Shown here in pieces: positions 28,025 to 43,730 of a DNA stretch of 64,000 bases (its first letter is position 1; the number at the start of each line of letters is the position of its first letter). This stretch comes from Thermoplasmata archaeon. GTDB lineage: Archaea; Thermoplasmatota; Thermoplasmata; RBG-16-68-12; JAGMCJ01. Made by a program: the position numbers and the translations under genes. The stretch is from the NCBI GenBank assembly GCA_023136265.1, contig JAGLRN010000069.1, positions 8,680 through 72,679 of the forward strand. The letters are read 5' to 3'. The notes below the pieces were generated by a model. It saw only the letters and a program-made list of their open reading frames with translations. It was not told the DNA's origin and did not search any database.

Positions 28025-28036
28025 GGGCTTGGTACA

Positions 28037-28999
28037 ATGGCATTGGAGTTGCCCAAGGAGAAGTGGGTAGGGAAGATTGGACAAGTCGTCATCGGAGCCC
28101 TCGAGAGCGAGGGGGGAACGCGGACGAGCAAAGTTGCCCTGGGAGGGGCAACGAGCCTGCCTTTCCTCGGCTTTGAGGGCGAGTATCCGAACGAGCCGCC
28201 GATAGGGATGGAGATTTTCGACATCGTCCGAGAGGACTATCCAGAGGTTGCGAGGAAGCCCTTCGAGGATGTCATCGACGACCCCGGTAAGTGGGCCAAG
28301 AAGTGCGTCGAGGAATACGGCGCGGACATGATCTGCATCAGGATGATCGGCACGAACCCGGAGGAGGAGAACCGCTCGGTCGAGGACGCTGAACAGACGA
28401 TCAAGGAACTCAAGGAAGCGGTCGGAGTCCCGCTCCTGATCTACGGCTCCGGAGATGAGGAGAAGGACGCCAAGGTCCTCGAGATGGCCTCGAACGTTAT
28501 GGCCGGCGAGAGATGCCTTCTCGGTCTCGCGGAGGAGGCCGCGTACAAGTCGATATCCGTCGCGACCATGTCCAACGACCATGGAATCGTGGCGTTCAGC
28601 AATCTGGACATCAACCTGGCGAAGCAGATGAACATCCTGCTCACGGATTTCGGTGTCAAGCTCGGGAACATCGTCATGGACCCGCTTCAGGCGGGCCTAG
28701 GATACGGGCTCGAGTACTCGTACTCGGTCATCGAGAGGATCCGGCTCGCCGCGCTCATGGGAGATAAGATTCTTCAGGTTCCCATGATGTGCGGGACAGC
28801 GCGCGTCTGGAACGCGAGGGAGGCGTTCAAGGAGGACGCCGACACCGGGGATTCCACCTCCCGAGCGATATTCTGGGAGGCCACGACCGGTCTGTCCGCC
28901 CTACTGGCGGGCGCGGACGCGCTTCTCATGAGACATCCGGATGCCGTCAAGCACGTCAAGGAGTCCGTCAAGAACCTCTACGGAGGAGGCGAGCAGTAA
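28037..28999 (+). CDS. acsD: Corrinoid iron-sulfur protein small subunit (AcsD/CdhD-like TIM barrel, bacterial length)
   Basis: 320 aa, MALELPKEKWVGKIGQVVIGA...VALGGATSLPFLGFEG, typical of the CoFeSP delta subunit. Confidence 0.8.
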   Translation: MALELPKEKWVGKIGQVVIGALESEGGTRTSKVALGGATSLPFLGFEGEYPNEPPIGMEIFDIVREDYPEVARKPFEDVIDDPGKWAKKCVEEYGADMICIRMIGTNPEEENRSVEDAEQTIKELKEAVGVPLLIYGSGDEEKDAKVLEMASNVMAGERCLLGLAEEAAYKSISVATMSNDHGIVAFSNLDINLAKQMNILLTDFGVKLGNIVMDPLQAGLGYGLEYSYSVIERIRLAALMGDKILQVPMMCGTARVWNAREAFKEDADTGDSTSRAIFWEATTGLSALLAGADALLMRHPDAVKHVKESVKNLYGGGEQ

Positions 29000-30333
29000 T
29001 GGCGCTCACTGCCCTGGACATCTACAAGAAACTGCCGCAGACGAACTGCGGGAAATGTGGGTTCCCAACATGCCTGGCATTCGCGATGCAGCTGGCCAAC
29101 AAGAAGGCGAGCATCGACGCCTGTCCGGACGTCTCGGACGAGGCAAAGGAACTGCTGGAATCCTCAGCCGCACCGCCGATAAAACTGGTGAAGGTGGGCT
29201 CTGGGGACAGGGAGATTGAGATGGGAGACGAGGTCGTCATGCATAGGCACGAGAAGACGTTCTACCATCCTGTCGCGTACGCCCTGATGGTCGATGATGA
29301 CTCTCCAGACATAGAGTCCAAGGTCCAGGCGGCCGGGGAGATGAAGTTCGAGCGAGTGGGGCAGGAGATGCAACTCGACATGATCGCAATTCGCTCGAAA
29401 TCGGACGATCCAGCGAAGTTCTCCTCTGCCGTCTCCGCGGTGAAGGGAAAGACGTCAGTACCGCTCGCGCTCGTGTCGCAGAACCCAGCGGTCATAGAGG
29501 AAGGGCTGAAGGTCTGCGGCTCTGACAGACCGCTCATTCACGCCGCGACCAAAGACAACTTCGAGAAGATGGCGGAGCTCGCGAAGGCGAACAACTGCCC
29601 GCTGGCGGTCCTCGAGGACTCGGGACTGGAGGAGCTCGCTGAACTGAGCAAGAAGGTGAAGGAGGCGGGCGTGGAGGACATAGTCCTTGACCTCGGCAAG
29701 AAACCCCTGGGCAAGCTGTTCCAGGAGCTCACGCTGATCAGGCGGCTCGCCATCAAGAAGCTCTTCAGACCTCTCGGCTATCCGATCATCATGTTCGCCG
29801 AGGGCGAGGGGGCAAGCGAGGGTCTGGAAGCCGCGATCGGAACCCTGAAGTACGCTTCCATCGTCGTTATGAAGGAGGCGGACAGGGCCATCATGTATCC
29901 GCTGTTCACGCTCAGGCAGAACATCTACACAGACCCGCAGAAGCCCATACAGGTGAAGCCTGGCATATACGAACTCAACGGACCCGCCGAGGACTCACCG
30001 GTGATGATCACCACGAACTTCTCGCTCACTTACTTCACCGTCGCGGGGGACATCGAGACCAGCAAGGTCCCGAGCTATCTCCTCGTGGCCGATTCCGAGG
30101 GTCTGTCCGTGATGACGGCGTTCGCGGCGGACAAGTTCACCGCCGACACCGCTACGGAGCTGATAGAGAGCTGCGGGATTGCGGACAAGGTCAATCACAA
30201 GAAGATCATCATCCCCGGACAGGTGGCGAGGATGAGTGGAAAGCTCAACGAGAACTCCGGCTGGGAAGTGGTCGTGGGACCGAGGGATTCCTCCGGCCTT
30301 CCGAAGTACCTGAGAGAATACACTAGCGCCTAG
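28999..30333 (+). CDS. acsC: Corrinoid iron-sulfur protein large subunit (AcsC/CdhE) with an N-terminal [4Fe-4S] motif
   Basis: Starts MALTALDIYKKLPQTNCGKCGFPTCLAFAMQLA (Cx2Cx4C...C), with the ATG overlapping the acsD stop (TAATG), followed by TIM-barrel and B12-binding regions. The listed ORF has a spurious 70-aa N-terminal extension. Confidence 0.85.
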   Translation: MALTALDIYKKLPQTNCGKCGFPTCLAFAMQLANKKASIDACPDVSDEAKELLESSAAPPIKLVKVGSGDREIEMGDEVVMHRHEKTFYHPVAYALMVDDDSPDIESKVQAAGEMKFERVGQEMQLDMIAIRSKSDDPAKFSSAVSAVKGKTSVPLALVSQNPAVIEEGLKVCGSDRPLIHAATKDNFEKMAELAKANNCPLAVLEDSGLEELAELSKKVKEAGVEDIVLDLGKKPLGKLFQELTLIRRLAIKKLFRPLGYPIIMFAEGEGASEGLEAAIGTLKYASIVVMKEADRAIMYPLFTLRQNIYTDPQKPIQVKPGIYELNGPAEDSPVMITTNFSLTYFTVAGDIETSKVPSYLLVADSEGLSVMTAFAADKFTADTATELIESCGIADKVNHKKIIIPGQVARMSGKLNENSGWEVVVGPRDSSGLPKYLREYTSA

Positions 30334-31473
30334 CTACATCTGCGTCGGGTCCAGGTAGCTCGCTTCCTTCTTCCTGATCGGCTCGAGTGACTTGTCCACG
30401 GTCTTTTTCATCTGCAGACCGGAGACGTGCATCAGAGTGTCCCCGAGGTCGTCCTCGACGTTCATCGAGCACAGGCATGGATAGTGATGGTGCGCCAGCC
30501 CCGCCTTTTCCACGGCATCCCTGACCTCAGTTCCTGGGAGTTTATCGGCAACGAACCTCCCGCAGCCGCAGGGCGAGTCACGCACGACCTCCGTCCCCGT
30601 CACGGTGTTCTTCTCGACCTTCACGTCCAGTATGGGCCTTCCGAAGAATTCAGCGAACTTGTCGATGATAGGATTGCCCACCGCATCGAGGGTGCAAAAG
30701 GGCCTCGGGAACGCGGTTGCGATTCCGGTCTTTGAGAGTTCCCGCTTGATTTGCGTCTTCATCCCGAGTGGTAGCCACTGTGAGCTGTCCACCGGTGCGA
30801 TTAATGCCATCGCATCTGCGGCCTTCACTATGTCTACGATCAGTTGAGCGGCGCTCGAGTTCTCCTGCAGGGCGAGCACTAGGTCCGCTTTGGGCACGGA
30901 CTCTGGCAGGAACTCAGCGGGGTCGTCGATGACGAGTGGCAGGTCCACCGGGAGCATCAGTGTCTCCACCTTGAAGCCCTCGGGACCGTTGTCCTGAACA
31001 TTCTTGGCGATGCGCTCACCGTACTCACCCTGAACGAGCGCGAGAATCGTCATTTCTCCTTTGCCTACCCGCTCGAGTTCCTCGGCGGTCAGCTCCCGCT
31101 TCTGGATTTCCTCCTCCTTCTCCGCGGCCCGCTCGACGTGATAGGTCGGCCCTCTCTCCAGAGCCTCAAGAAGCCGCTTCTCGAAGGCCTCCATTTCGTC
31201 CCAATCTAGCTCTTCGCCTATGTCCAGAGCGATCGCCGAGTGCTTCGCCTCCCCCTGGAGCGTGTTCTTCTCGCCCGCGAGAACGGAGATCTCCGTCTCT
31301 CCAACGATCAATCGGAGGTTCGAGAAGACCTCCTTCTTCTTCTGAGCCTTGAGATATACCCTCTCAGGAGTGTAGTCGAAACGGCACGATCCTGTGCTGA
31401 GCGCCGCCGATCTGAGGGCCGCAACGACATCGCTTCCAGAGTATTCCTTGCCGAATGTGACTTCCTTTCTCAT
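30334..31473 (-). CDS. Hypothetical protein with a C-terminal Cys/His motif, embedded in the acs cluster
   Basis: 379 aa with no recognisable catalytic motif. C-terminal SPCGCGRFVADK...HHHYPCLCS. It is convergent with acsC with zero gap, and sits upstream of acsF/cooC2 on the same strand. Confidence 0.4.
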   Translation of the reverse strand: MRKEVTFGKEYSGSDVVAALRSAALSTGSCRFDYTPERVYLKAQKKKEVFSNLRLIVGETEISVLAGEKNTLQGEAKHSAIALDIGEELDWDEMEAFEKRLLEALERGPTYHVERAAEKEEEIQKRELTAEELERVGKGEMTILALVQGEYGERIAKNVQDNGPEGFKVETLMLPVDLPLVIDDPAEFLPESVPKADLVLALQENSSAAQLIVDIVKAADAMALIAPVDSSQWLPLGMKTQIKRELSKTGIATAFPRPFCTLDAVGNPIIDKFAEFFGRPILDVKVEKNTVTGTEVVRDSPCGCGRFVADKLPGTEVRDAVEKAGLAHHHYPCLCSMNVEDDLGDTLMHVSGLQMKKTVDKSLEPIRKKEASYLDPTQM

Positions 31474-31506
31474 GTTCTGCCTCTGCCGACTAGAAGTTGG
31501 CGCTGG

Positions 31507-32253
31507 CTAGATGTTCAGCTTGGCGAGGATCTCCTTGGCCCGCGCGTAGGCGACGCTGTCCGTGGGGAGGTCGATGAGCGGATCCCCGGTCAGGGAGAGC
31601 TCTTTTATGTTCTGGTCCTCGGGGAACACTTCCCTGCAGTTAAAACCAGCCTCCTCGATGACCGGGCTCAGGAGCTCCGGGATCTCGGCGGTGCGGCTGA
31701 TGACCAGGCATCTATCCTTCACCTTCAGGTCTAGGCTACCGCTCAGTTCCCTGATCCTTCCAGCGGTCACCACGCCGTGTTTGGTCGGGTCCGACAGTAT
31801 GAACATCATGTCGACGTTCCTTGTGGTCCTCCTGCTGAGGTGCTCCATCCCGGCCTCGTTGTCTATGACCACGTAATCGTAGTTCGCCGAGAGCTGGTCC
31901 AGATACGTCCGAAGGATGTTGTTGATGTAGCAGTAGCAACCCGGACCCTCCTGTCTGCCCATCGCGACTAGGTCGAACTTGTCGCCCTCGACCATGGCCA
32001 TACGGAGGTTATAGTCCACGTAGTCCTGCTTGGACATAGCGGGGGATGAATCACCAACGTTCTTGAGCAGGTCCTCTCTGAGATCGCCGATCGTCTGGTT
32101 CACTTCGACCCCGAGCATCACGTCGAGCGTCGAGTTTGGGTCTGCGTCGACCGCCAGAACCACGGACTTCTCGCTGAGCGCCTTTATCAGAAGCGTCGCG
32201 AACGTGGACTTCCCCACGCCGCCCTTGCCCGAAACGGCGATGGTCTTTCCCAT
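31507..32253 (-). CDS. acsF: Second CooC-family Ni-insertion ATPase (AcsF-like)
   Basis: MGKTIAVSGKGGVGKST Walker A and the CxC motif GPGCYCYINN. A GGAGGA SD lies 6 nt upstream of the internal ATG; the listed ORF begins 9 codons earlier. Confidence 0.8.
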   Translation of the reverse strand: MGKTIAVSGKGGVGKSTFATLLIKALSEKSVVLAVDADPNSTLDVMLGVEVNQTIGDLREDLLKNVGDSSPAMSKQDYVDYNLRMAMVEGDKFDLVAMGRQEGPGCYCYINNILRTYLDQLSANYDYVVIDNEAGMEHLSRRTTRNVDMMFILSDPTKHGVVTAGRIRELSGSLDLKVKDRCLVISRTAEIPELLSPVIEEAGFNCREVFPEDQNIKELSLTGDPLIDLPTDSVAYARAKEILAKLNI

Positions 32254-32254
32254 C

Positions 32255-33256
32255 TCAGTCCTCCAGACCGTACTTCTCACGCATGTGGCTGGACAGTTCC
32301 CTCGTCATCCTCAGGGCCGCCTCCGCCTGTTCCTCGCTCAGGCCTGATAGGCCGCACATGGGCGTCACAAGGGACTGCCTGCGAATCCTTTCCTCGTCCA
32401 CACCTTTCCCTGCCAGCAGTCCAATATTACTTTCAAGCTTCCCTATAAGACTTTGCAGATTCTCAGCTGCAAAGGCGTCGGGTGTCGATGGGACCACGCC
32501 CCACGCGATAAGGCCTCCCCGGTCCAGGAAGGCTGACACATCCTCGGGATAGAGCGAGAGCGTGTGACCATAGTTGTACGCGTCGAAGGAGAGCATGCTG
32601 GCAGGAGACCGCAGGATGAGCGGCCATTCCGTGTTCCCGCAGCAGTGGAACCCGCTCAGCCCGCCAAGGTCGTTGACCACGTCCTCGAACAATGTGAGGA
32701 CCTCGTCCTTGCTGATGTTCAGGAATGCCGAGCCATACATGTTGAGATACGGCTCGTCGAAGACGACCAGTGTGTTCTCGTGAAGACCGGAGAGGCGGTT
32801 TGCCATCCAACGCGCGGTCATGTTCACCGTCTTCGTGACGATCTCCTTGTACGTGTCGTCGTACAGAAGCGATCTCTTGTCCTCGTACGTCAGGTTGAGA
32901 CCCAGGCTGATGGGTCCCGTGACCTGCCCTCGAACAATCTTGGCGGGGGTTCCCTTCACCGCCCTCTCGAACTCGAAGAATGCGGTGGCGAACTCGGGTG
33001 ACAGCGAGAAGTATTCCAAATCCTCCTCAATGACCTTCTCGTAGAAGGACTCGATCTCAGATGCCTCCCCCGGTTCTACGAATATCCTGTCATCCTCCAT
33101 CCGGACGCCAGGGATGCTCTGCGAGTACTGGGCGTACATGTTCTCCTTGAATCCCCGGCGGGGAAGCTGTGGCCAGGTCGGGATCTCGGGCGTGTACTTC
33201 AGAACGAGCTCCACGGCCTTTTTGACGTCGGTGTGCGGGAGGCTTCCGACGGTCAT
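32255..33256 (-). CDS. Core MetE-like (cobalamin-independent methionine synthase C-terminal domain / URO-D fold) Zn-dependent methyltransferase
   Basis: LVVFDEPYLN (MetE IQIDEPAL-like), His-x-Cys FHCCGN, and a distal Cys in TPMCGLSGL (MetE PDCGL-like). 333 aa, without the N-terminal folate-binding barrel of full MetE. Confidence 0.6.
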   Translation of the reverse strand: MTVGSLPHTDVKKAVELVLKYTPEIPTWPQLPRRGFKENMYAQYSQSIPGVRMEDDRIFVEPGEASEIESFYEKVIEEDLEYFSLSPEFATAFFEFERAVKGTPAKIVRGQVTGPISLGLNLTYEDKRSLLYDDTYKEIVTKTVNMTARWMANRLSGLHENTLVVFDEPYLNMYGSAFLNISKDEVLTLFEDVVNDLGGLSGFHCCGNTEWPLILRSPASMLSFDAYNYGHTLSLYPEDVSAFLDRGGLIAWGVVPSTPDAFAAENLQSLIGKLESNIGLLAGKGVDEERIRRQSLVTPMCGLSGLSEEQAEAALRMTRELSSHMREKYGLED

Positions 33257-33279
33257 CGGAAGGAAATCCGCACGGAAGG

Positions 33280-35184
33280 TCAGATGACCAGCTCCCTGGC
33301 GCTCGGGAACTTCTCCAGGTTGGTATGAGGCAAGAACATGGCAGAGGTGAACTCATTGAAGAATGACGGTGTGACGCTAAGCTCGATGTAGGTCATCTTC
33401 TTGGCGATGTCTGTCGCCTCCTGCTTGCTCTTCTTCGACAGGATCGTCAAACGGGCGCCCGCCAAAGACCCGTTCCCGATGAACCTGAACTTGTTAGGGT
33501 CCACGTCAGGAAGCAGGCCGAGCCATATGCTCTTCCTCGTGTCCAGATAGTTCCCGAAGCCACCAGCGATGAATATCTGCTCGACATCGTCGAAGGAGTA
33601 GTTCATCGTCTTCAGTAGCACGGTCGCGGCCGCGTAGACCGCCGCCTTCGTTCGGATGATGTTCCTGATGTCGACCTCCGTGATGACCATGTCCTTGTAT
33701 ATCCTGGTCTCGTCCGCCCAGACGACGACGAACTCCTTGCCTTCGGGGCCGTCACGGACCCTCGGGATCTTGAGCGGTCTGATCCTCCCTGAACGGTCGA
33801 TGACACCGTGCATGAACATCTCCGCGAGCAGGTCGATGAGACCGGTGCCGCAGATGCCTTTCGGCTTCACATCCCCTATCGTCTTGTACTTGACCTCAAG
33901 GTCCGTGGTGAGAGCCACTTTCTCTATCGCACCGACCATCGCCCGGATGCCGTAATCGACCTCGCCGCCCTCGAACGCCGGGCCCGCCGAGCACGAACAG
34001 GAGACCATCCAGTCCTTGTTCCCGAGAACGACCTCGCCGTTCGTCCCGACGTCTATCAGCATGGAGAGCTTGTCCGTCTTGTGCAGCGCTGACGCCAGCA
34101 CATCCGCCGTGATGTCCCCGCCGACGTAGCTGCTGCGACACGGCAGGATGTAGACGTAGCCCTCCGGGTTGATCTTGATGCCAGTCTCCCTGGCCTTGAT
34201 GAGCGGGAAGAAGTTCGCCGACGGGATGTACGGCTCCCGCCTGATGTGCGCGGGGTTCAGTCCGAGAAGCAGATGAGTCATCACCGTGTTGCCAGCCGCG
34301 GCGGCGTAGCAGATCTCGTTCCGACGCACTCCCGCATCGTCCATCATCTCCTTGAGGAGGTAGTTAATCGTCTCCACAATCAGCATTCTGAGAACCTTCA
34401 GCCCGCCCTTCTCCTCCTCGGCGTGAAGAATCCTGGTGAGGACGTCCTCGCCGTGGATTACCTGCTTATTATAGGCTGCCTTCTTCGCGACTATCTCCCC
34501 GCTACTCAGGTTCACGAGCTCGGCGACGACAGTCGTGGTTCCCACGTCCACCGCCAGACTGAAGTTCCTCGCGGACGTATCTCCGCCCTGCAGATGCACG
34601 AGCTCGTGGCACTCGCCGTCCTCCACGACCGTGGCCGTCACGTCCCACTCGCTCTTCCTGAAGAGGTTGCTCATCCTCCTCATCACGGGCAGGGGGCCCA
34701 TGATGTCCTCGATTCCGTGGTCGCTCAGCGCTCGCTTCAGGCGGTCCAGATCGCTCAGGTTGTCCGTCAGCGTCGGTTCGCTCAGCTCAAAATAGAATTT
34801 CATGATGGGCGGGTCCAGCTTCTCCGCCTCCACGACGTCGGCCTTCATCAGTATCTGAAGCATCCCGACGCGGCTCTCTTCAGGGACGAGGACTTCGACA
34901 TCGCCCTCCGCCCTGGTCATGCATGCGAGGTGATAACCCTTCTTGATCTCGCTAGGTTCGAGAAGCTCCGTCTTCTCGGCGGTAACGTCTCCCGCCTGAA
35001 CGATGACCTTGCACTTGCCGCACTTGCCTCGACCGCCACAGATGGAATCGACGTAGATGTCGGCCTCGATCGCTGCGTCGAGGAGGTCCGTGCCCTTGTC
35101 GACCTCTATCGTCTTGTCGTCTGGTAGGAACCTGACCTGCACCTTCTTAGCCATGTCTCCCAGCATTCCGAAGTCTTGCGCCAT
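33280..35184 (-). CDS. acsV: Reductive activator of the corrinoid Fe-S protein (RACo/AcsV): an N-terminal [2Fe-2S] ferredoxin fused to an ASKHA-fold ATPase (DUF4445)
   Basis: N-terminal plant-type ferredoxin VDSICGGRGKCGKCKV...HLACMT followed by about 500 aa of ATPase-like domain. 634 aa. Confidence 0.75.
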   Translation of the reverse strand: MAQDFGMLGDMAKKVQVRFLPDDKTIEVDKGTDLLDAAIEADIYVDSICGGRGKCGKCKVIVQAGDVTAEKTELLEPSEIKKGYHLACMTRAEGDVEVLVPEESRVGMLQILMKADVVEAEKLDPPIMKFYFELSEPTLTDNLSDLDRLKRALSDHGIEDIMGPLPVMRRMSNLFRKSEWDVTATVVEDGECHELVHLQGGDTSARNFSLAVDVGTTTVVAELVNLSSGEIVAKKAAYNKQVIHGEDVLTRILHAEEEKGGLKVLRMLIVETINYLLKEMMDDAGVRRNEICYAAAAGNTVMTHLLLGLNPAHIRREPYIPSANFFPLIKARETGIKINPEGYVYILPCRSSYVGGDITADVLASALHKTDKLSMLIDVGTNGEVVLGNKDWMVSCSCSAGPAFEGGEVDYGIRAMVGAIEKVALTTDLEVKYKTIGDVKPKGICGTGLIDLLAEMFMHGVIDRSGRIRPLKIPRVRDGPEGKEFVVVWADETRIYKDMVITEVDIRNIIRTKAAVYAAATVLLKTMNYSFDDVEQIFIAGGFGNYLDTRKSIWLGLLPDVDPNKFRFIGNGSLAGARLTILSKKSKQEATDIAKKMTYIELSVTPSFFNEFTSAMFLPHTNLEKFPSARELVI

Positions 35185-36110: not shown

Positions 36111-36737
36111 CTAGGAGTGGTGCTTCCCGGATTCCTGCGGGATCCCCTTCTTCAGCTTCTCATATCTCTCTCGATAGAGTTTCAAGCAGGACTCGCAGCA
36201 GAGGTAATGAGTTCTCCCGTCCATCTTGAGCGTGACAGGATCGTCCGTGATAGGTTTCCTGCACAGGTAGCAGGGAACGACTATCGATATCCCTTCCGAG
36301 ATGACCGCATCGGGCTCCTTCTTCGTCGTCCGAACGACGCGGTCGATGGAGTATCTGTCGATCTCCTCCAGCCCCTCAAGCCAGGCAAGGAAGCTGTTGA
36401 TCGTAGCTTCGCTTTCGGATACAAGCCTGCACATGAGCTTGGAGCCGCTGAGGACGAGGACCTCACGGATGTTCTCCTTCTCCGAAAGGCTCTTGGCCAG
36501 CTTCTCCAGGTGCTTCGGCTGACATTCTACCGAGACAATCGAGGTGGTCTCCCGGATCGCTTCCGTATCGATCAATGCCGAGTATCCTCTGATGACTCCC
36601 CGTTCCTCCAAAGCCTTGATCCTCGAACTCACGGTCGGAGTGCTGACACCGATGGTCTTGCCAAGCTCCCTGAAAGAGATCCGGGCATCCTCCTGAAGCT
36701 GCTTCAGTATTCTCGCGTCGGTCTCGTCGAGTTCCAT
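36111..36737 (-). CDS. Lrp/AsnC-family transcriptional regulator with a C-terminal TRASH metal-binding domain (CopR-like)
   Basis: N-terminal HTH MELDETDARILKQLQEDARISFRELGKTIGVSTPTVSSRIKALEE, a RAM-like middle region, and C-terminal CYLCRKPI...THYLCCESC (TRASH Cx2C...Cx3C). Confidence 0.75.
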   Translation of the reverse strand: MELDETDARILKQLQEDARISFRELGKTIGVSTPTVSSRIKALEERGVIRGYSALIDTEAIRETTSIVSVECQPKHLEKLAKSLSEKENIREVLVLSGSKLMCRLVSESEATINSFLAWLEGLEEIDRYSIDRVVRTTKKEPDAVISEGISIVVPCYLCRKPITDDPVTLKMDGRTHYLCCESCLKLYRERYEKLKKGIPQESGKHHS

Positions 36738-36870
36738 GGTTTGGTACTAGGCAGCCTCACCTATTATACCTTTGTAAAGCGGGCGGTTGCATCTCCTTAC
36801 AAACGTGAGAGGGAAGTAGGATAGATTGGCTTTCCCTAGTACCCTCCGTACTTCCTGAGAGTGAATCTCA

Positions 36871-37824
36871 ATGATAGCTCAGTTTCTACTCGTACTGAGA
36901 GAAGGTTTGGAAGCGGCCCTAATCGTCGGCATAGTCTTCGCCTATCTGAGGAGGATTGGCAAGGGCCCGCTCACAAGATTCCTGACTCTGGGTGCCGCAT
37001 CGGCAATCGGCGTCAGCATACTTGCGGCCCTGCTCATCTTCATGCTGGTGGGACAACTCTCGGACCCCCAGATGGAGATTTTCGAGGGTGTGGCGTCCCT
37101 CCTCGCGGTGGGCGTTCTGACCATCATGATCTTTTGGATGTCCAAGAAGGGACCTGAGCTGAAGAGGGAAATCGAAAGCAAACTGGACAGCAGGGTATCG
37201 AGAGGTGAGGTCTTCGCCGTGTTTGGGATATCCTTCGTCGCCGTCGTGCGGGAAGGTCTTGAGACGGTGCTCTTCCTCTTCCCGCTGGCTCTGTCTGATA
37301 GCGCGGCAACCATTCTAGGCCTAGTTGCCGGACTCGCTGTCGTCCTTCTCCTCCTCGTCCTCCTGATGAAGGGGATCGAGAGGCTGGACATCAAGAAGTT
37401 CTTCACAGTCACAGGAGTCCTCCTGATCGTCTTCGCCGCAGGCCTCACTGCGACCGCGGTCCACGAGTTCAACGAGGCTGGGGTCGTTCCGCCTGTCGTG
37501 AATGAGGTTTGGAACATCAACCCCCCGCGAAACCCAGATGGAAGCTATCCTGTGCTCCACGAGAAGGGAGCAATAGGCGGGATCATGAAGTCCCTCTTGG
37601 GATACAACGGAAACCCGTCCTTGACCGAGGTCACAGCCTATGTTTCGTATTGGATAGTGATCTCTGGATACCTGTTCCTCACAAACGCGGAGACTGTGAA
37701 GAGCATGCTTCGCGCGATGGGGGCCAAAGTCAGATCGCCATTGAGAAAGGGTCGGATGGCAGCGGTTCCTAGTGAGGACATACGGCTGGATGAAGCGACC
37801 GCCCGAGGGAGTGTCGAGAGGTGA
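36871..37824 (+). CDS. efeU: FTR1/EfeU-family high-affinity iron (or metal) permease
   Basis: Two REGLE motifs (LREGLEAALIVG and VREGLETVLFLF) in a polytopic membrane protein of 317 aa. Confidence 0.75.
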   Translation: MIAQFLLVLREGLEAALIVGIVFAYLRRIGKGPLTRFLTLGAASAIGVSILAALLIFMLVGQLSDPQMEIFEGVASLLAVGVLTIMIFWMSKKGPELKREIESKLDSRVSRGEVFAVFGISFVAVVREGLETVLFLFPLALSDSAATILGLVAGLAVVLLLLVLLMKGIERLDIKKFFTVTGVLLIVFAAGLTATAVHEFNEAGVVPPVVNEVWNINPPRNPDGSYPVLHEKGAIGGIMKSLLGYNGNPSLTEVTAYVSYWIVISGYLFLTNAETVKSMLRAMGAKVRSPLRKGRMAAVPSEDIRLDEATARGSVER

Positions 37825-38381
37825 GTGCTTTGACGGAATCGAGTAATAGAAACAGCCTGATCCTTGCCGGGCTCCTGGCGGGAGCCATCATCCTGATAGT
37901 TGGCATCACGTTGACCCTGTGGGACGCTGGGGGCATGACCGAAGACATGTGGAGCCATCACGGCATGGGACTGTCATTTCCCATGGGCATGTCTTTCGTG
38001 GTCTTAGGTGGAGTTGTCCTTGTCATCCTTTTCGTCCTCGCCATTCCTCAGCCCCGCGGTGTCGAGAGGCCCGTGGCAGCCTACATCCCGATGACTCCCC
38101 TTCAGAATAATGAGGATTGGACACCAGAAATGCGGAATCTGGCACTGAGGCTCCTCCAAGGGGATGAGCGCAGAATGCTAAGGCAGATTTTCGACGCGGG
38201 TGGTCAGATACTTCAGAAGGACCTGGTGTATCGAGCAGGCTTCTCGAAGGCCAAGGTGACGAGGCTGCTCGACAAGTTGGAGAGGAGAGGTCTAATCATC
38301 AGGGAGAGACACGGTTCAACGAACCTCGTCCGAGTGCTAGAGGACCTAGGAGGTAAGAACGATGGAATTTCAGAAAAGTGA
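37821..38381 (+). CDS. Membrane-tethered winged-helix transcriptional regulator: two N-terminal TM helices with a Met/His-rich extracytoplasmic loop, and a C-terminal wHTH
   Basis: TM1 LILAGLLAGAIILIVGITLTLW, loop DAGGMTEDMWSHHGMGLSFPMGMSF, TM2 VVLGGVVLVILFVLAI, then LRQIFDAGGQILQKDLVYRAGFSKAKVTRLLDKLERRGLIIRER (MarR/TrmB-like wHTH). The start overlaps the efeU stop (ATGA-type). Confidence 0.55.
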   Translation: MSALTESSNRNSLILAGLLAGAIILIVGITLTLWDAGGMTEDMWSHHGMGLSFPMGMSFVVLGGVVLVILFVLAIPQPRGVERPVAAYIPMTPLQNNEDWTPEMRNLALRLLQGDERRMLRQIFDAGGQILQKDLVYRAGFSKAKVTRLLDKLERRGLIIRERHGSTNLVRVLEDLGGKNDGISEK

Positions 38382-38459: not shown

Positions 38460-38831
38460 ATGGAAGCAGGAATGATAGCGACTCTCGTGATAGGATCGCT
38501 TCTGACGACGGGAGCGGTGGTCGGTGTTGCATCGACGAACGGAGACATGATGCAGGGAACGACGGACGGCGGACACATGGGTGGATGGTATCACTCGATG
38601 GGTCACGGAATGATGCACGACCATGATGAGCACGACGAATGCGAAGAACACATGGAAGAATGGGAACACGAGTACTGTGAGGAGTACGAGGAAGAGTGCG
38701 AGGACTCGGAGAACGGGAACCACGCGGAAATGCACGAGGAATGTGAGGAGCACATGGAAGAGCGGGAGAACGAGGACTCCTCTGACGACGAGGACCACGA
38801 AGAGCACGACCATTGCGGCATGATGGGGTAA
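38460..38831 (+). CDS. Secreted or membrane-anchored His/Glu/Cys/Met-rich metal-binding protein
   Basis: N-terminal hydrophobic segment, then MMQGTTDGGHMGGWYHSMGHGMMHDHDEHDECEEHMEEWEHEYCEE...EDHEEHDHCGMMG. SD AGAGGTGA lies upstream. The local GC is lower than the surroundings. Confidence 0.55.
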   Translation: MEAGMIATLVIGSLLTTGAVVGVASTNGDMMQGTTDGGHMGGWYHSMGHGMMHDHDEHDECEEHMEEWEHEYCEEYEEECEDSENGNHAEMHEECEEHMEERENEDSSDDEDHEEHDHCGMMG

Positions 38832-39049
38832 GCTGTCCGCGCGCCAAGCGGGAGAAGTCCCCTTCACAGACGAGGATTGTCCTTTTCAGGTCTTGAGACC
38901 CCCAGATGGTGTGGGACTTACATACATCAATCCAACTGAGGCATTGGCATTCAATTGTCAAGGAGAATCCACAAAAGGAGGAAGCTGCCTAGCAACACCA
39001 GGAGGAGGACACGGATCAGGCGTGCCCTCGGCGTTCAACGCGTGATAAG

Positions 39050-39652
39050 ATGGGTCTCGTTAGCTGTCCTGTATGCAATGTGAAGGTCAAGGCTGAGAAC
39101 CTGCCCAATCACATAAAGAAGGTCCATCCTGGATCAGATGTGCGGGTGAAACCGGTGGGGAGGAAGATGAGGAATTCCTCGAGAGAAGGGGGCAGCAGAA
39201 GAATCGTCTATGCGGTCTCGGCGGCCATAATCCTTGTCGTTGGTTCGCTTCTCGTCTACAGCATGATCAGTAGTCCAGGCACACCGGAAATATCCGTCAG
39301 TCCGCTCAGCTACAGCTTCGGAGACATATCCCAGCGCGAGGTTTCAACGACTGTCCAAGTCAGAAACACCGGAGATTCGGATTTAGTGATAACGGGCATC
39401 TCTACGTCATGCGGGTGCACATCTGCGGTTCTCACGGTCGGAGGCAGGAGGAGTCCCACCTTCGGAATGCACAACAATCCCTCGGGTTGGAGCGAGACTC
39501 TTCTTCCTGGACAAACCGCGTCTCTCGACATCACATACGATGCGACTCTACATCCGGACGACGGCCCGGTGCTAAGAATCGTCTACATAGGGAGCAACGA
39601 CCCCGCCAGGCCCGAGGTCGAGATAGAGCTCACGGCCATTGTGATCCCATGA
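39050..39652 (+). CDS. Bitopic protein: an N-terminal C2H2-like zinc finger, one TM helix, and a C-terminal DUF1573-like beta-sandwich domain with a CGC motif
   Basis: CPVCNVKVKAENLPNHIKKVH (C-x2-C-x11-H-x4-H), TM IVYAVSAAIILVVGSLLVYSMI, then VQVRNTGDSDLVITGISTSCGCTSAVL...LRIVYIGSNDPARPEVEIEL. Confidence 0.6.
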   Translation: MGLVSCPVCNVKVKAENLPNHIKKVHPGSDVRVKPVGRKMRNSSREGGSRRIVYAVSAAIILVVGSLLVYSMISSPGTPEISVSPLSYSFGDISQREVSTTVQVRNTGDSDLVITGISTSCGCTSAVLTVGGRRSPTFGMHNNPSGWSETLLPGQTASLDITYDATLHPDDGPVLRIVYIGSNDPARPEVEIELTAIVIP

Positions 39653-40959
39653 ACGACGATTCCTGTCATGAACCGCCTTCTGACATGGAGAGGTACTCGA
39701 AGGAAAAGCAACCCGAGAAGCGATTCCAGAACCTTGTTTTCGTTTCGATAGTCCTATCATTGGGTGCGATAATGGTCATCGGCTCTCTCGCCCCATATTT
39801 CTTCCTGCCCCGGCCCAGTGACATAACGCTCAACGAGGGCGAGGGTCTCATCTACTACAACGAGGCGTGCGGGGAGTGCGCCATATACATCGACGACGAG
39901 CTCATTCCCACGCTGCGAATAGGAGGGATATCGACAGTTCACAAGAAGGATTACATCAACGAGAGGAGCTACAGAGGGGAGTTGAGTGCAATCAACGACC
40001 AGCTGGGCATTCCCCCGCATCTGCAGAGCCACATCGCGACGTTCGTCAAGAAGAACACGACCATGGTCTTCGAGGGTCATGTCCCGGAGCATGTGATATC
40101 GGACCTGATGACCAACTCATCCGCACTGAATCTGAGCAAGATACTCGTCTACCAGGAGGAGATGAGGGATCCCACGACGTATACCGCCTGGGGCTTCGAG
40201 GGTGAGGACCGAGAATATGCCATCGACGTTCCCATCAGCGAGTTCCTTCTCTGGTACGGCCAAGGTTCTCCTTCCACCAGCACAGAGGAGTCTCTCCTGC
40301 CGCTGGTGCTGATCACAGGATTCCTCGACGGTATAAATCCCTGCGCGATTGCCGTCCTGTTGTTCTTCATCACCTTTCTCTTCGTGATAAGGAGAACGAG
40401 AGGAAATGTGGCCACGATGGGCGCGGTATACATACTCTCGATCTTCTTTGTCTATTTCTTCATTGGCATCGGGCTACTCAGGGCCATCGTCTTGAGTGGG
40501 CAACCGCATCTCCTGGCCTACGTCGGGTCGTCACTCATACTTGTACTGGGAACGCTGAGTCTATTGCAGTACTTCTTTCCCAACCTCCCCCTCACGTTCA
40601 AGATGCCTGAGAGGACATGGACAAAGACCAAGGATTGGATCTCCAGGGCAACGCTCCCTTCCTCCTTGGTGGCCGGTCTGCTAGTCGGATTGTGCACATT
40701 CCCTTGCTCCGGTGGAATATATGTAGCTGTGCTGACCCTAATCGCTTCGGAGACGACCTATTTCGAGGGCGTTGGCTATCTTTATCTGTACAACATCATG
40801 TTCGTGCTTCCCCTAATACTGATACTCGTCTTCACATCAAACAGGTTTGTGGCCAGAAAACTCACAGGTTGGGAGAGATCGAACAGCAGGCTAATCGTCC
40901 TTTTCTCTGGAATCGTCATGATTCTGTTGGGTGTGGCCTTCCTGTTGTTTCTGATCTAA
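39649..40959 (+). CDS. ccdA: CcdA/DsbD-family thiol:disulfide transmembrane electron-transfer protein with an N-terminal extracytoplasmic CxxC domain
   Basis: A signal-anchor, then a roughly 200-aa soluble domain with YYNEACGECAIY. The CcdA-type 6-TM core carries the two conserved Cys motifs GFLDGINPCAIAV and GLCTFPCSGG. The start ATG overlaps the upstream stop (ATGA); the listed ORF carries a spurious 80-aa N-extension. Confidence 0.7.
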   Translation: MNDDSCHEPPSDMERYSKEKQPEKRFQNLVFVSIVLSLGAIMVIGSLAPYFFLPRPSDITLNEGEGLIYYNEACGECAIYIDDELIPTLRIGGISTVHKKDYINERSYRGELSAINDQLGIPPHLQSHIATFVKKNTTMVFEGHVPEHVISDLMTNSSALNLSKILVYQEEMRDPTTYTAWGFEGEDREYAIDVPISEFLLWYGQGSPSTSTEESLLPLVLITGFLDGINPCAIAVLLFFITFLFVIRRTRGNVATMGAVYILSIFFVYFFIGIGLLRAIVLSGQPHLLAYVGSSLILVLGTLSLLQYFFPNLPLTFKMPERTWTKTKDWISRATLPSSLVAGLLVGLCTFPCSGGIYVAVLTLIASETTYFEGVGYLYLYNIMFVLPLILILVFTSNRFVARKLTGWERSNSRLIVLFSGIVMILLGVAFLLFLI

Positions 40960-41094
40960 GGAGCCACAGATGAGGACCGGCAGACGATTATAGGCGGACT
41001 GGCAATCGCAGTCGTGGTATGATCTTGGTGGGAAATGCCTGTGTAAGGCGCAAAGATTAACTGGCCTAAGTCTTCTGCCCTTTGGCAGGAAGTC

Positions 41095-41703
41095 ATGGGT
41101 GGTAAAATGCCCTCGGAAAGATGTCCTGTTTGCGGCGTGAAGGTCAAGTCGGAGAACCTGTCAAGGCACATCAAGAAGGTCCATCCAGATGCGGAGGCGG
41201 GTGCGGAGAAGAAGGCCAAGAAGGCAAGGCGCCCGTCCGTGGGGGGAAGGAAAGCCATCTATGCGGTTGTGGCGGTAATCATAATCGTCGTGCTGGTGGC
41301 TTCCGCATTCGTTCTGCTCCCCGCAGCAGAAGAGCCCAAGATTGGCGTCGAGCCATCCAGCTACGACTTCGGGACCATCCCGAGGGTGCTGCAGACTGTC
41401 AACATAGAGGTTCGCAACGACGGAGAGGCCAACCTCGAGATAACGAGAATCTGGACTTCCTGTATGTGCACCTCGGCCGTACTGAGGGTCGGAGGAAGGA
41501 ACAGTCCCGTGTTTCAGGGCGATTCCCAGACATCTTGGATTGGTGAGACGCTGCTCCCGGGACAGCACGGATATCTGGATGTGACGTATGACCCCACGTA
41601 CATACCCGATTCCGGTTCCATTGCCAGGGCGGTCTACATACAGAGCAACGACCCCGACAGATCCGAAGTCCAGGTCACGATAACGGCTTACGTGACGCCT
41701 TGA
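41095..41703 (+). CDS. Paralogue of the 39050 gene, with the same C2H2-like zinc finger + TM + DUF1573-like (CMC motif) architecture
   Basis: CPVCGVKVKSENLSRHIKKVH, TM IYAVVAVIIIVVLVASAFVLL, then VEVRNDGEANLEITRIWTSCMCTSAVL...VYIQSNDPDRSEVQVTI. It is about 45% identical to the 39050 product by eye. Confidence 0.6.
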   Translation: MGGKMPSERCPVCGVKVKSENLSRHIKKVHPDAEAGAEKKAKKARRPSVGGRKAIYAVVAVIIIVVLVASAFVLLPAAEEPKIGVEPSSYDFGTIPRVLQTVNIEVRNDGEANLEITRIWTSCMCTSAVLRVGGRNSPVFQGDSQTSWIGETLLPGQHGYLDVTYDPTYIPDSGSIARAVYIQSNDPDRSEVQVTITAYVTP

Positions 41704-42665
41704 TTGCTCCGTCCTTTTCGAGGCGCGTACTTGAGCGTCTCGTAGTCGGTCCTGACCGCGTATCCGCCGTCCTGGATGATGCTCACGAACTGACCGCAGT
41801 TGCTCCCTATCTTGTTCTCCTCGAGCTCGCCGATGCTGAGAAGCACATCGAACCCGAAATCGCGGAAGCTGTCCGTGATCTGACGGGAGGAGTCCTCGTC
41901 GTGCGGGTCGACGACGGACCTCAGTCTCTTCCGCTTGACGTTCGCCGTCGGGTTCAGCGGTGTGATCTTGATGAAGAACTTGGCGGGGTCGAAGTGCTCC
42001 GCGATGACCTCCGGGTCGACCGGATAACCCTGAGTCATAGCGAAGTTCAGCGTGAGTTTCCTGTCCCCCTTGCGGAAGTAACTCTCGCCGTACTCCGAGA
42101 TCTGCGGGAGCCCCCACTTCTTGATCGGCATCAGCTCGTCCCGCCTCTGTCCGTTCGTCGTGTGCACGGAGAACTGCAACTGGAACCGTCCCGAGTAGTG
42201 GGCGTCCTTGATGTCGATGAGCTCGTCGAAGAAGCTCCCCCTGCCAACGGGAGCGAGCGTTGAGATGCAGGGCATGAGGCCAGGGGCATCGTACACATCC
42301 GCCAAAGCCCGCAGGGCGTCCGGCACGTCCGGGTTCAGCGAGGGCTCGCCCATACGGGCGAACTGCACCTTGAACTTCGGGATTGGCACCCGCCCGTCCG
42401 GAAACCGCCTCCGCACCATGTGGTCTATCTGCTGCAGGATCTCGTCCTTCGTCAGTTTCCCGAGGTAGTGCCCGCCAGCGTCGCACATCTTGCAGTTCAC
42501 CGGGCAACCGAAGGACGACGAGATTATCAGCACCCACTTCTCCTCGCGCGGCACCGGCGGCTGCAGCGATTCGACGAACTCGACGAGGTAGCCGTTGCCC
42601 TCCCTCATGGATGCCACGTAGACCTTCGCCAGATCCTCCTTTCCGAACTCACCCAGAATCCTCAT
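41688..42665 (-). CDS. Radical SAM enzyme of the RlmN/Cfr family (RNA C-methyltransferase-like)
   Basis: CPVNCKMC (Cx3Cx2C), ARMGEPSLNPD (RlmN MGMGEPLLN-like), CISTLAPVG (RlmN STSG region, with the conserved Cys), ITPLNPT (WNP-like), and C-terminal SNCGQFV (the RlmN catalytic CGQ). Confidence 0.6.
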   Translation of the reverse strand: MRILGEFGKEDLAKVYVASMREGNGYLVEFVESLQPPVPREEKWVLIISSSFGCPVNCKMCDAGGHYLGKLTKDEILQQIDHMVRRRFPDGRVPIPKFKVQFARMGEPSLNPDVPDALRALADVYDAPGLMPCISTLAPVGRGSFFDELIDIKDAHYSGRFQLQFSVHTTNGQRRDELMPIKKWGLPQISEYGESYFRKGDRKLTLNFAMTQGYPVDPEVIAEHFDPAKFFIKITPLNPTANVKRKRLRSVVDPHDEDSSRQITDSFRDFGFDVLLSIGELEENKIGSNCGQFVSIIQDGGYAVRTDYETLKYAPRKGRSNQGVT

Positions 42666-43600
42666 TTCCCGCTCCCCATTGACTCGATAATCGACATGGC
42701 CGCGAGGATGCCGTCGCCAACCGCAATCCCCACCTGCCTGTGGTTCCCCCGTCTCACGTCACCGACGAGGTATAAACCTGACGCCTCCTTCCAGTTCTCC
42801 GCGAGCTCGGGCGGCAGGACGCTGACGTCCGGCTCCCTCCCGCACGCGATAAGCCCGTAGTCGGCGACGATTTCCTTCTCGGTCCCCTCCTGCTCCAAGG
42901 TGAAGACGAGCTGACGTTCTTCCTCCTTCACTGACTTGAGCTCCGTTCCCGCGTGCGTCCTGATCTTCTCTGAACGGCTCGCCCTCTCGAGAAGCAGGGG
43001 AAGGCACCTGGGTTCTCCCCGGAATGCCACATCCACGTGGATGCCCCTTGAAGCCAGGTTGAGAGCGTAGTCGAACGCCGCGTCGCCACCGCCGATTACG
43101 AGGAAATTGCCTTTGACGGCCGGGGGCACGTCCCTGATCTCGTAGAAGACCTTGGACAGCTCCACGTCCTCGAGGCCTTGGATGTCGACCCGCTTGGGTC
43201 TCGTACCCGTGGCCACGATGACGGACTTCGCATATGCCTCTCCTGACTCGGAGGACACGTTGAAGATGTCCCCCTCCTTCGAGACGCTATGGACCTCCTC
43301 CATGCGAGTGTCGATCCTCCAGCGCACGAGGTGTCGCTTGAACAGCTCAACGAGTTCCGGCCCGCCGATGCCTTCGGGGAAGCCAGGGTAGTTCTCGACG
43401 AGGTGTGCGTTCCTCAGAAGCCCGCCGATCTCGTCCCGCTCGAAAACCAGCGGGTCAGCTCCCGCCCGCTTGAGATAGACGGCAGCGGCTATGCCCGCCG
43501 GACCTGCCCCAATGATGACGGCAACGTAAGTCTTCCCCTTCGCCTTCGATACCGCCAGAGTCGCCGACTGCGGAAGGAGCACAGACTCGCTTTCACCCAT
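42662..43600 (-). CDS. Thioredoxin-reductase-like FAD/NAD(P)-binding flavoprotein lacking the redox-active CxxC (TrxR-type ferredoxin/flavodoxin reductase-like)
   Basis: FAD motif VAVIIGAGPAGIAAAVYL, NAD(P) motif FLVIGGGDAAFDYALNL, and a C-terminal GD motif GLYLVGDV. No CATCD-type dithiol. It overlaps the radical SAM start by 4 nt. The start may be 43600 (MGESES) or 43660. Confidence 0.6.
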   Translation of the reverse strand: MGESESVLLPQSATLAVSKAKGKTYVAVIIGAGPAGIAAAVYLKRAGADPLVFERDEIGGLLRNAHLVENYPGFPEGIGGPELVELFKRHLVRWRIDTRMEEVHSVSKEGDIFNVSSESGEAYAKSVIVATGTRPKRVDIQGLEDVELSKVFYEIRDVPPAVKGNFLVIGGGDAAFDYALNLASRGIHVDVAFRGEPRCLPLLLERASRSEKIRTHAGTELKSVKEEERQLVFTLEQEGTEKEIVADYGLIACGREPDVSVLPPELAENWKEASGLYLVGDVRRGNHRQVGIAVGDGILAAMSIIESMGSGK

Positions 43601-43730
43601 GTTCTCAACCTTCGAGCCTTTTCCTGGATTGTGTGGCTGGAAAAGGCAAAACAATGCCACCTCCCCGCGGATGGTAGGGAGATATGGCAGGATATCTTAA
43701 GCATTTCGCAGTCGAGAAGCCACGTGGCGT

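Follow-up and report, generated by a model that had tools for sequence, protein, structure and literature searches.

A copper-gene-linked module of DUF1573 proteins and a CcdA-like membrane protein, a candidate envelope thiol relay, in a Thermoplasmata archaeon and its relatives

A 64,000-nucleotide stretch of the genome of a Thermoplasmata archaeon (contig JAGLRN010000069.1 of assembly GCA_023136265.1, positions 8,680 to 72,679; hereafter the window) encodes three membrane proteins, A, B and C (Table 1), with B, a relative of CcdA bearing an additional external domain, lying between two paralogous DUF1573 proteins. A first-pass annotation of this DNA had taken the three proteins together to suggest a thiol-redox relay or sensor; the conserved pairing of B with DUF1573, the outward orientation of the cysteine motifs and the kinship of B with CcdA now make a thiol relay the natural reading. 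We propose that A-B-C is a copper-associated thiol relay of the cell envelope, resembling a DsbD or ScsB that has been split and re-ordered, an account that we favour while giving it about even confidence. The module is best classed with the DsbD/ScsB/CcdA-type systems for envelope electron transfer, here tied to copper, and is itself undescribed. The combination, which the first-pass annotation had taken to be new, is absent from Pfam, NCBIfam and the literature searched, where we found no description of the module and no paper linking the DUF1573, DUF411, CcdA and CopA/CsoR families. What we say below of function rests on sequence, predicted structure and gene context.

The pairing of B with DUF1573 extends far beyond the window. 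Scanning one genome per GTDB species yielded at least 594 loci that encode a relative of B, the best 80 of which were taken for context; the locus counts given here cover 81 loci, many of them on short contigs, so that those for metal genes are lower bounds. An HMMER scan of 1.84 billion representative proteins placed the relatives of B in 560 clusters (50% identity) at E <= 1e-30, and a tblastn search with B against the plasmids of PLSDB gave no match. The loci sampled come from Chloroflexota, Patescibacteria, Thermoplasmata, Methanomassiliicoccales, Hydrothermarchaeota, Bipolaricaulota and Micrarchaeota, and further from Nitrospirota, Methylomirabilota, Alphaproteobacteria, Cyanobacteria and Halobacteria. 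With a hidden Markov model (HMM) built from A, C and two fusion proteins, a DUF1573 gene was found to adjoin B on the same strand in 70 of the 81 loci, representing at least 10 phyla. Usually two or three DUF1573 paralogues stand beside B, upstream or downstream of it, with a CGC and a CMC protein recurring as a pair, and all 127 partner domains contain the motif [ST][ST]-C-x-C-T; this diversity was taken from the loci, a word-index homologue search with A having given 19 close relatives. Moreover, the two families occur on single chains: P0098 and P0111 consist of a lipoprotein signal, DUF1573, a CxxC domain and the membrane core in that order, DUF1573 is directly joined to the core in P0201, and several open reading frames (ORFs) of the loci are fused too. 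Adjacency and these Rosetta-stone fusions together bear out the co-occurrence across genomes on which the first-pass annotation had let its proposal depend.

Topology was predicted for A, B and C from hydropathy and the positive-inside rule. B is predicted to begin with a 28-residue cytoplasmic tail containing 'SCHE', followed by an anchor helix (residues 29-47), an acidic external domain (48-215) and six transmembrane (TM) helices. The external domain contains C74-GE-C77, H128, H144-V-P146 and M172, and the six-TM core N-P-C232 in TM1 and C349-TFP-C353 in TM4. The cysteine motifs of A, C and the external domain of B are all predicted to face outwards, as had been proposed, and independent evidence that both soluble domains are outside comes from fusions such as P0098, where the chain starts with a lipoprotein signal peptide and continues through DUF1573 and the CxxC domain to the TM core. 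Conservation is high at nearly all of these positions. In a set of 81 B sequences the CxxC is invariant (C74 and C77 are kept in 79 of 79), P146, at the position of the thioredoxin cis-Pro, occurs in 81 of 81, and so does each of D227, N230, P231 and C232, while C353 is present in 80. H144 and M172 are each found in 79 of the 81, and H128, invariant in a 25-sequence alignment, in 57 overall, with Ser in 23. C349, a third membrane cysteine, is present in 78 sequences and replaced by His in two; both this near-invariant residue and the CopG/DUF411-like nature of the external domain had been overlooked by the first-pass annotation. Many archaeal B proteins start, on the cytoplasmic side, with a motif of the 'PHCHE' type or a tail rich in His. 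One homologue of B, P0024 (593 amino acids), has a His-rich N-terminal tail (MPHCHEDDAVSDSHEGHAQDAHAHD) and its CopG-like domain in tandem, the second copy having lost the CxxC.

The core of B is homologous to CcdA. HHalign matched the two with 97.5% probability (E 6.9e-12, 208 columns) and aligned NPC232 and FPC353 with the pair of 'PC' motifs that are catalytic in canonical CcdA, so that the two share a homologous six-TM core in which TM1 and TM4 each hold a conserved Pro-Cys. Pfam DsbD_TM (PF02683) matches at E <= 0.05 in 14 of 25 members of the B family (best 7.5e-7), and neither Pfam nor NCBIfam holds a model dedicated to B. The start codon of B and the TGA of A share ATGA (39649-39652); together with the alignment and the predicted topology, this agrees with the earlier description of B as a CcdA relative with an extra N-terminal external CxxC and a start overlapping the stop of A. 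B differs from CcdA (PF02683; 5VKV) in its N-terminal anchor and 160-residue external CxxC domain, in the near-invariant C349 and the invariant D227 and N230, and in having no link to cytochrome c genes. The same type of core is fused elsewhere, at the same position, to ordinary thioredoxin or glutaredoxin-like CxxC domains (P0244, P0258, P0259, P0270 and P0278), which argues that it exports reducing power.

Homologues of B, where they are named, are annotated 'cytochrome c biogenesis protein CcdA', and this name, with the homology behind it, would make B a CcdA that reduces apocytochrome c with its thioredoxin domain. One relative does have a Cytochrom_C_asm gene about 3 kb away, and ORFs with a WWD motif occur in five of the 81 loci. 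Against such a role, however, stand the low frequency of those ORFs, the presence of a multihaem protein in just 1/81 loci, the absence from the window of any WWD-motif or multi-CxxCH ORF, and the identity of the conserved partner, which is DUF1573 and not a cytochrome or CcsBA. Moreover, the B family has many members in Patescibacteria, a group in which respiratory cytochromes are generally missing. We rejected cytochrome c maturation as a general role on the scarcity of WWD-motif and multihaem ORFs in the loci, and consider it extremely unlikely that this is what B does.

Fold comparison assigned the external domain of B a thioredoxin-like fold nearest to that of CopG, a link that sequence searches did not give: no PDB sequence, that of CopG included, was significantly matched by B or by a profile of that domain, and Pfam DUF411 (PF04214) matches 12 of 25 members of the B family weakly, through a shared 'EGHVP'-type motif. 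CopG is a copper-cluster protein that takes part in copper resistance under anaerobic conditions and is linked to copA-type loci (PMC7558416). The B family thus has in common with CopG/DUF411 (PF04214; 6WIS) this motif and the link to copA-type loci. It differs in that the CxCC of CopG, which carries the tetranuclear copper cluster, is replaced by CxxC in 79 of 79 sequences, in that the domain forms one chain with a CcdA-like core, and in a sequence likeness that is below threshold.

A and C, 49% identical over 195 residues (E 7e-52), score 43.4 and 42.1 bits with Pfam DUF1573 (PF07610), both above the gathering cut-off of 26.1, which bears out the family resemblance noted at first pass. They also match the HYDIN/VesB immunoglobulin (Ig)-like model of Pfam and, below threshold, the OS_HP2 (seleno)protein model of NCBIfam. 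Both consist of a PapD/ASH-like beta-sandwich carrying [ST][ST]-C-x-C-T, read as TSCGCT in A (C121-G-C123) and as TSCMCT in C (C123-M-C125), preceded by a C2H2-like tail (C6, C9, H21 and H26 in A; C10, C13, H25 and H30 in C) and a TM helix (about 52-70 and 57-75 respectively). The tails, rich in Lys and Arg (12 and 15), are predicted to lie inside and the acidic DUF1573 domains outside, so that the bitopic form with one TM helix and an external vicinal-Cys domain put forward earlier agrees with both the ORFs and the topology prediction. An AlphaFold model of A, with a mean predicted local distance difference test score (pLDDT) of 87.7, has a nine-strand sandwich above 90, a TM helix at residues 49-73 and a disordered linker. 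A and C are members of the DUF1573 family by Pfam score and carry its C-x-C motif, and adjacency to B marks off a subgroup of that family; our sample is this B-adjacent subgroup, and most family members, those of Bacteroidota for example, fall outside it. A UGC form of DUF1573 with selenocysteine is on record (PMC9312934, PMC13188914), a sign that the C-x-C position is reactive. This selenoprotein form was the sole functional hint on DUF1573 in the literature searched, and in the 85 loci scanned we found no in-frame TGA at the Cys-x-Cys position.

The N-terminal tail of A and C is, from its sequence, a plausible zinc finger. Its motif, C-x2-C-x11-H-x4-H, is one residue under the classical C2H2 spacer (C-x2-4-C-x12-H-x3-5-H), and residues 3-25 of A are modelled by AlphaFold as beta-beta-alpha (pLDDT 82-88); matches to Pfam zf-Di19 and zf-C2H2 are weak and below cut-off (E 0.008-0.05). 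Taking this finger as a signalling output, A and C would be sensors, detecting the external redox or metal state with Cys-x-Cys and signalling to the cytoplasm by way of their fingers. Such a role would suit the bitopic build with its cytoplasmic beta-beta-alpha element, the retention of the motif in six loci of Thermoplasmatota type (the window among them), and the proximity of a DUF7343 helix-turn-helix (HTH) protein and a TRASH regulator. Yet the vast majority of the DUF1573 partners of B lack the finger: among the 70 loci with such partners it occurs only in the window and five loci of Thermoplasmata/Methanomassiliicoccales, and in bacteria the partners carry an ordinary signal peptide or an anchor. 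It is, moreover, a membrane-tethered stretch of about 25 residues with no recognisable effector domain, its Pfam matches are below threshold, and paralogue C is missing from a close relative (L084) whose B is 83% identical and which is syntenic with the window on both sides. With the finger confined to Thermoplasmatota and the second paralogue missing there, the 'signalling output' is unsupported, and we judge the sensor very unlikely. The tail, which like a 'SPTFGMHNNPxGW' insertion is specific to a Thermoplasmatota subgroup of DUF1573, is a lineage-specific accessory outside the core mechanism. Nor is the arrangement of two paralogues flanking B, described from the window, a kept layout: L084 has the upstream DUF1573 gene only, although two or three paralogues beside B are common elsewhere. 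C is thus a recent addition to this locus.

The copper-gene context of B was established by clustering all ORFs of the 81 loci. Metal genes occur in 47 of them, often in the same gene row on the same strand. The most frequent neighbour is a P1B ATPase (33 loci), followed by a small 'ACCxHH' membrane protein of no family (22), canonical CcdA (17), a CsoR-type repressor (16), SHOCT (14), a TlpA-like thioredoxin (13), YHS and a double-thioredoxin protein (12 each), and Cupredoxin_1 and FTR1 (six each). By motif, 17 of 32 P1B ATPases have CPC/YN/MxxSS and seven CPH, which we take, following the accepted classification, to mark CopA and CopB copper pumps, so that 24 of the 32 are of CopA or CopB type. 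The Patescibacteria have one long same-strand row running from a BlaI/CopY-like HTH gene through to CsoR, Cupredoxin_1 and the P1B ATPase. Among the archaea, a P1B ATPase is present in L081 and L082/L083, and the window and its relatives have a regulator with the architecture known from cop loci of CopR-CopA type: an Lrp-TRASH gene is divergent from DUF1573-B in the window, L081, L082/L083 and L084, and Lrp-HTH plus TRASH, with a copper role, is the architecture of archaeal CopR (PMC7830388). No P-type ATPase was found anywhere in the window. The metal-homeostasis neighbours to which the first-pass annotation had drawn attention are confirmed by Pfam and by sequence (the Lrp/AsnC-TRASH regulator, FTR1, the DUF7343 protein and a Met/His-rich protein), and the link is kept in other genomes, for copper specifically.

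This context bears on a further possibility, namely that the module is a general disulfide reductase or isomerase of the envelope, a housekeeping equivalent of DsbD/CcdA for archaea, bacteria of the candidate phyla radiation (CPR) and Chloroflexi, with its copper neighbours reflecting shared stress regulation. Homology to CcdA, the thioredoxin-fold CxxC domain and the conserved Cys-x-Cys acceptor would all be expected of such an enzyme; TlpA-like, DsbA-like, double-thioredoxin or canonical CcdA neighbours occur in 39 of the 81 loci, and about 40% of the loci have no metal gene in the available sequence. Nonetheless, that share is an upper bound, many loci being short contigs, and 47 loci with metal genes is, by our own estimate, far above chance for genomes with one or two P1B ATPase genes each. 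A purely housekeeping function, which we regard as unlikely, is also at odds with four archaeal contexts in which a CopR-like regulator is transcribed away from the module directly beside it, and with the conservation of the His, Met and additional Cys residues.

The copper-associated relay that we favour would work as follows. The core of B would take up reducing equivalents from a thioredoxin-type donor in the cytoplasm through C232 (TM1) and C353 (TM4) and pass them to its own outward-facing CopG-like thioredoxin-fold domain, at C74-x-x-C77 opposite cis-Pro146. This domain would in turn hold the Cys-x-Cys of the exported Ig-like proteins A and C in thiol form. At the cell surface these reduced sites, together with nearby conserved His or Met, may bind Cu(I) or act as a buffer for it; alternatively, they may reduce thiols that copper has damaged. 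Expression of the locus is probably turned on by its divergent Lrp-TRASH regulator of CopR type. The homology of the core to CcdA, the two catalytic cysteines, the external thioredoxin/CopG-like CxxC, the external Cys-x-Cys, the pairing, the fusions and the copper context are observed; from these we infer which way electrons flow and from which donor, that copper is the ligand, and how the locus is regulated. The copper context matches that of the Scs system, in which a DsbD-type reductase, ScsB, serves Cu(I)-binding thiol proteins when copper is in excess; that system is induced by copper, and ScsB and ScsC both bind Cu(I) (PMC10907172).

A-B-C and DsbD/ScsB have three features in common: their membrane domain belongs to the DsbD/CcdA superfamily and has an essential Cys in each of its halves, a CxxC module of thioredoxin fold faces outward, and so does an Ig-like module that bears a pair of cysteines. 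Electrons in DsbD pass from the membrane core to the thioredoxin fold and on to the Ig fold. However, the core of B has six TM helices and the size of CcdA, whereas that of DsbD/ScsB has eight; its thioredoxin-fold module is N-terminal and CopG-like, whereas theirs, DsbD-gamma, is C-terminal; B carries an additional membrane Cys; and the module is found in archaea, CPR bacteria and Chloroflexi, whereas theirs is proteobacterial. The single-chain order of DsbD/ScsB (N-terminal Ig-like Cys, eight-TM core, C-terminal thioredoxin-like domain) is not that of B, the module running from DUF1573, separate or N-terminally fused, through the thioredoxin-like domain to the six-TM core. A-B-C is therefore an analogue of DsbD/ScsB and not a member of that group.

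Several observations weigh against the thiol relay. B falls below the gathering cut-offs of both Pfam DsbD_TM (22.7 against 27.1 bits, E 6.6e-5) and Pfam DUF411 (14.6 against 27 bits), and bears a weak resemblance to ArsG, an efflux permease of CcdA fold. C349, with its occasional replacement by His, looks like a metal ligand, and the thioredoxin- or glutaredoxin-fused relatives lack a Cys there; the near-invariant H144 and M172 of the external domain are likewise ligand-like. About 20% of the partner domains have Met between the two cysteines of Cys-x-Cys, and one conserved partner position is His in 118 of 127 domains and Met in seven. Canonical CcdA and a TlpA-like thioredoxin lie beside B in 13-17 loci, where electron export may already be covered. 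Moreover, 11 loci, mostly from Anaerolineae, have no DUF1573; in seven of these a cysteine-free 'GGHH' lipoprotein, and in eight an 'ACCxHH' membrane protein, stands beside B, and neither can serve as a disulfide substrate.

Many of these features would suit a metal conduit working by thiolate relay, in which the CcdA scaffold has turned from an electron carrier into a carrier of soft metal, Cu(I) or possibly Ag(I) or Hg(II). The metal would pass from the Cys-x-Cys of DUF1573 (with His or Met) to the C-x-x-C, His and Met of the CopG-like domain, and from there to C232, C349 and C353 and across the membrane, where cytoplasmic ligands, for instance the 'CH' tail of B and the C2H2 tails carried by A and C, would receive or supply it, in a manner comparable to MerP/MerT/MerA or CopC/CopD. 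C349 lies one helical turn from C353 and is confined (as Cys, or His in two) to the subfamily with a CopG-like domain and DUF1573 partners, the sister proteins with plain thioredoxin or glutaredoxin domains reading 'FELPCTGG' at this position. H144 and M172 next to the CxxC, H128 in the 25-sequence alignment, and a nearest fold that belongs to a copper-cluster protein (PMC7558416) also speak for such a conduit. The same holds for the CMC variants and the seven His-to-Met replacements among the partners, for the 'PHCHE' or His-rich tails of many archaeal B proteins and the C2H2 tails of their DUF1573 partners, for the 'GGHH' lipoproteins and 'ACCxHH' membrane proteins as alternative neighbours, and for surroundings rich in copper genes; a CcdA-like fold, moreover, already serves transport in ArsG. 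On the other hand, both catalytic cysteines of CcdA and the thioredoxin architecture with its cis-Pro are fully kept, the same core is fused to plain thioredoxin or glutaredoxin domains in sister groups, and the cytoplasmic metal-binding tails are restricted to certain lineages. To our knowledge, no CcdA/DsbD homologue transports metal by a Cys relay. The Mer relay (MerP, MerT/MerC, MerA) does resemble the module in its paired cysteines outside, in the membrane and in the cytoplasm, but has no kinship with A-B-C in sequence or fold; the ATPases beside B are of the copper type, and no mercuric reductase was present in the neighbourhoods examined. We therefore treat the conduit as a possible though doubtful explanation, and it is rather improbable that the B subfamily, as found in archaea, CPR bacteria and Chloroflexi, represents a novel type of metal transporter, a CcdA-derived conduit for Cu(I) or other soft metals.

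The module bears on how thiols and copper are handled outside the cytoplasm in archaea, CPR/Patescibacteria and Chloroflexi, groups without DsbD, ScsB and CopG proper, and relatives of B are widespread, occurring in at least 594 species-level genomes. If the thiol relay is correct, it would give DUF1573 its first function and its UGC selenoprotein form a context, and the label 'cytochrome c biogenesis CcdA' would have to be revised for hundreds of proteins from organisms that have no cytochromes c. It would also be a case of convergent design, the logic of DsbD (membrane core, thioredoxin fold, Ig fold) having been independently assembled from different parts. Were the conduit true instead, B would be the first Cys-relay metal transporter on a CcdA scaffold.

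The genes of the locus are listed in Table 1. For B, the program-made list of ORFs also contains a longer version from 39409; we place its start at 39649 because 436-residue homologues match at 97-99% identity over the full length, the nearest of them annotated as from a Candidatus Thermoplasmatota metagenome-assembled genome. B and C are separated by 135 nucleotides, and the last 16 nucleotides of C overlap the end of the convergent radical-SAM gene. A-B-C forms the end of a forward-strand gene row from which the Lrp-TRASH gene is divergent.

Table 1. Position of A-B-C and other features in the window (numbered from its first nucleotide)
Feature	Position	Strand	Remarks
CODH/ACS (Wood-Ljungdahl) cluster	23856-35184		With RACo, CbiA-like ATPase and DUF166
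Lrp/AsnC-TRASH regulator	36111-36737	-	Pfam HTH_AsnC-type 63 bits, TRASH_HVO_1752_C 46.8 bits
FTR1-family permease	36871-37824	+	Pfam FTR1 158.6 bits
TM-anchored MarR/DUF7343 HTH protein	37821-38381	+	Pfam DUF7343 49.1 bits; start overlaps FTR1 stop
Met/His/Cys/Glu-rich protein, 123 amino acids	38460-38831	+	Membrane-anchored, very acidic; directly upstream of A
Gene A	39050-39652	+	ORF of 200 amino acids; bitopic DUF1573 protein
Gene B	39649-40959	+	ORF of 436 amino acids; CcdA-like membrane protein with extra external domain
Gene C	41095-41703	+	ORF of 202 amino acids; paralogue of A
RlmN/Cfr-like radical-SAM gene	41688-42665		Convergent with C
Thioredoxin-reductase-like flavoprotein	42662-43660	-
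Surface protein, 1611 amino acids	43731-48566	-	FG-GAP repeats, about 12 tandem Ig-like repeats, C-terminal anchor

The closest relatives differ in what surrounds the DUF1573-B pair. L084 has, in order, Lrp-TRASH (reverse strand), a gene for 119 amino acids, DUF1573, B, radical SAM (reverse) and the flavoprotein (reverse); L081, with B 65% identical, has Lrp-TRASH (reverse), DUF7343, a gene for 123 amino acids, DUF1573, B, a gene for 81 amino acids (reverse) and an HMA-ATPase (reverse); and L082/L083, with B 51% identical, have the ATPase, SHOCT, a gene for 86 amino acids, YHS, Lrp-TRASH (reverse), DUF1573 and B. DUF7343 lies upstream of DUF1573-B in L081 and L085. FTR1, DUF7343 and paralogue C are all absent from L084 and are therefore recent additions in the lineage of the window; the FTR1 and DUF7343 genes are variable companions of A-B-C on the same strand and not core parts. 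FTR1 recurs beside the B module although it is normally discussed as an iron permease.

The Lrp-TRASH protein is probably the metal-responsive regulator of the locus, and its position suggests that it may control A-B-C. The window contains just two copies of the 9-mer GCTGCCTAG, both in promoters of the locus, at 36747-36755 (reverse strand) by the start of the Lrp-TRASH gene and at 38984-38992 (forward strand) about 60 nucleotides upstream of A, the copies lying within a 17-nucleotide inverted match (36742-36758 with 38981-38997). We rejected it as a shared operator, two of 100 shuffles reaching two copies and the copy in L084 having one mismatch, which is not significant.

The 123-residue protein directly upstream of A matched nothing in Pfam or NCBIfam. 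L081 and L084 have genes for 119-123 amino acids at the corresponding place ahead of DUF1573-B, with only the N-terminal anchor aligning, and the protein is a candidate metal-binding accessory that may belong to the module. Its gene has an internal direct repeat of 63 nucleotides (38630-38692 and 38732-38794). We considered the flavoprotein downstream of the module as a source of electrons but rejected it: it lacks a CxxC redox disulfide, with 161.7 bits where the thioredoxin reductase cut-off is 343 it is no true thioredoxin reductase, and it is syntenic in the closest relative only, the radical-SAM and flavoprotein genes both accompanying B in L084 and not in more distant relatives.

Among the neighbours of B in other genomes are several unnamed families that match nothing in Pfam or NCBIfam: the four-TM 'ACC[AL]HH' protein (22 loci), the 'GGHH' lipoproteins of about 145 or 183 amino acids (19 loci), a Cys-rich protein of 235 amino acids with CNFCCG...NCGCAH (14 loci) and a membrane protein of 157 amino acids (12 loci). 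These families were seen in L012, L013, L017, L023, L043, L047 and other related loci, and in Patescibacteria their genes are part of the long same-strand row that leads to CsoR, Cupredoxin_1 and the P1B ATPase. As for the wider window, the carbon monoxide dehydrogenase/acetyl-CoA synthase (CODH/ACS) cluster suggests to us an anaerobic, acetogenic-type metabolism of this Thermoplasmatota archaeon, and the gene for the 1611-residue surface protein also adjoins the locus in L084.

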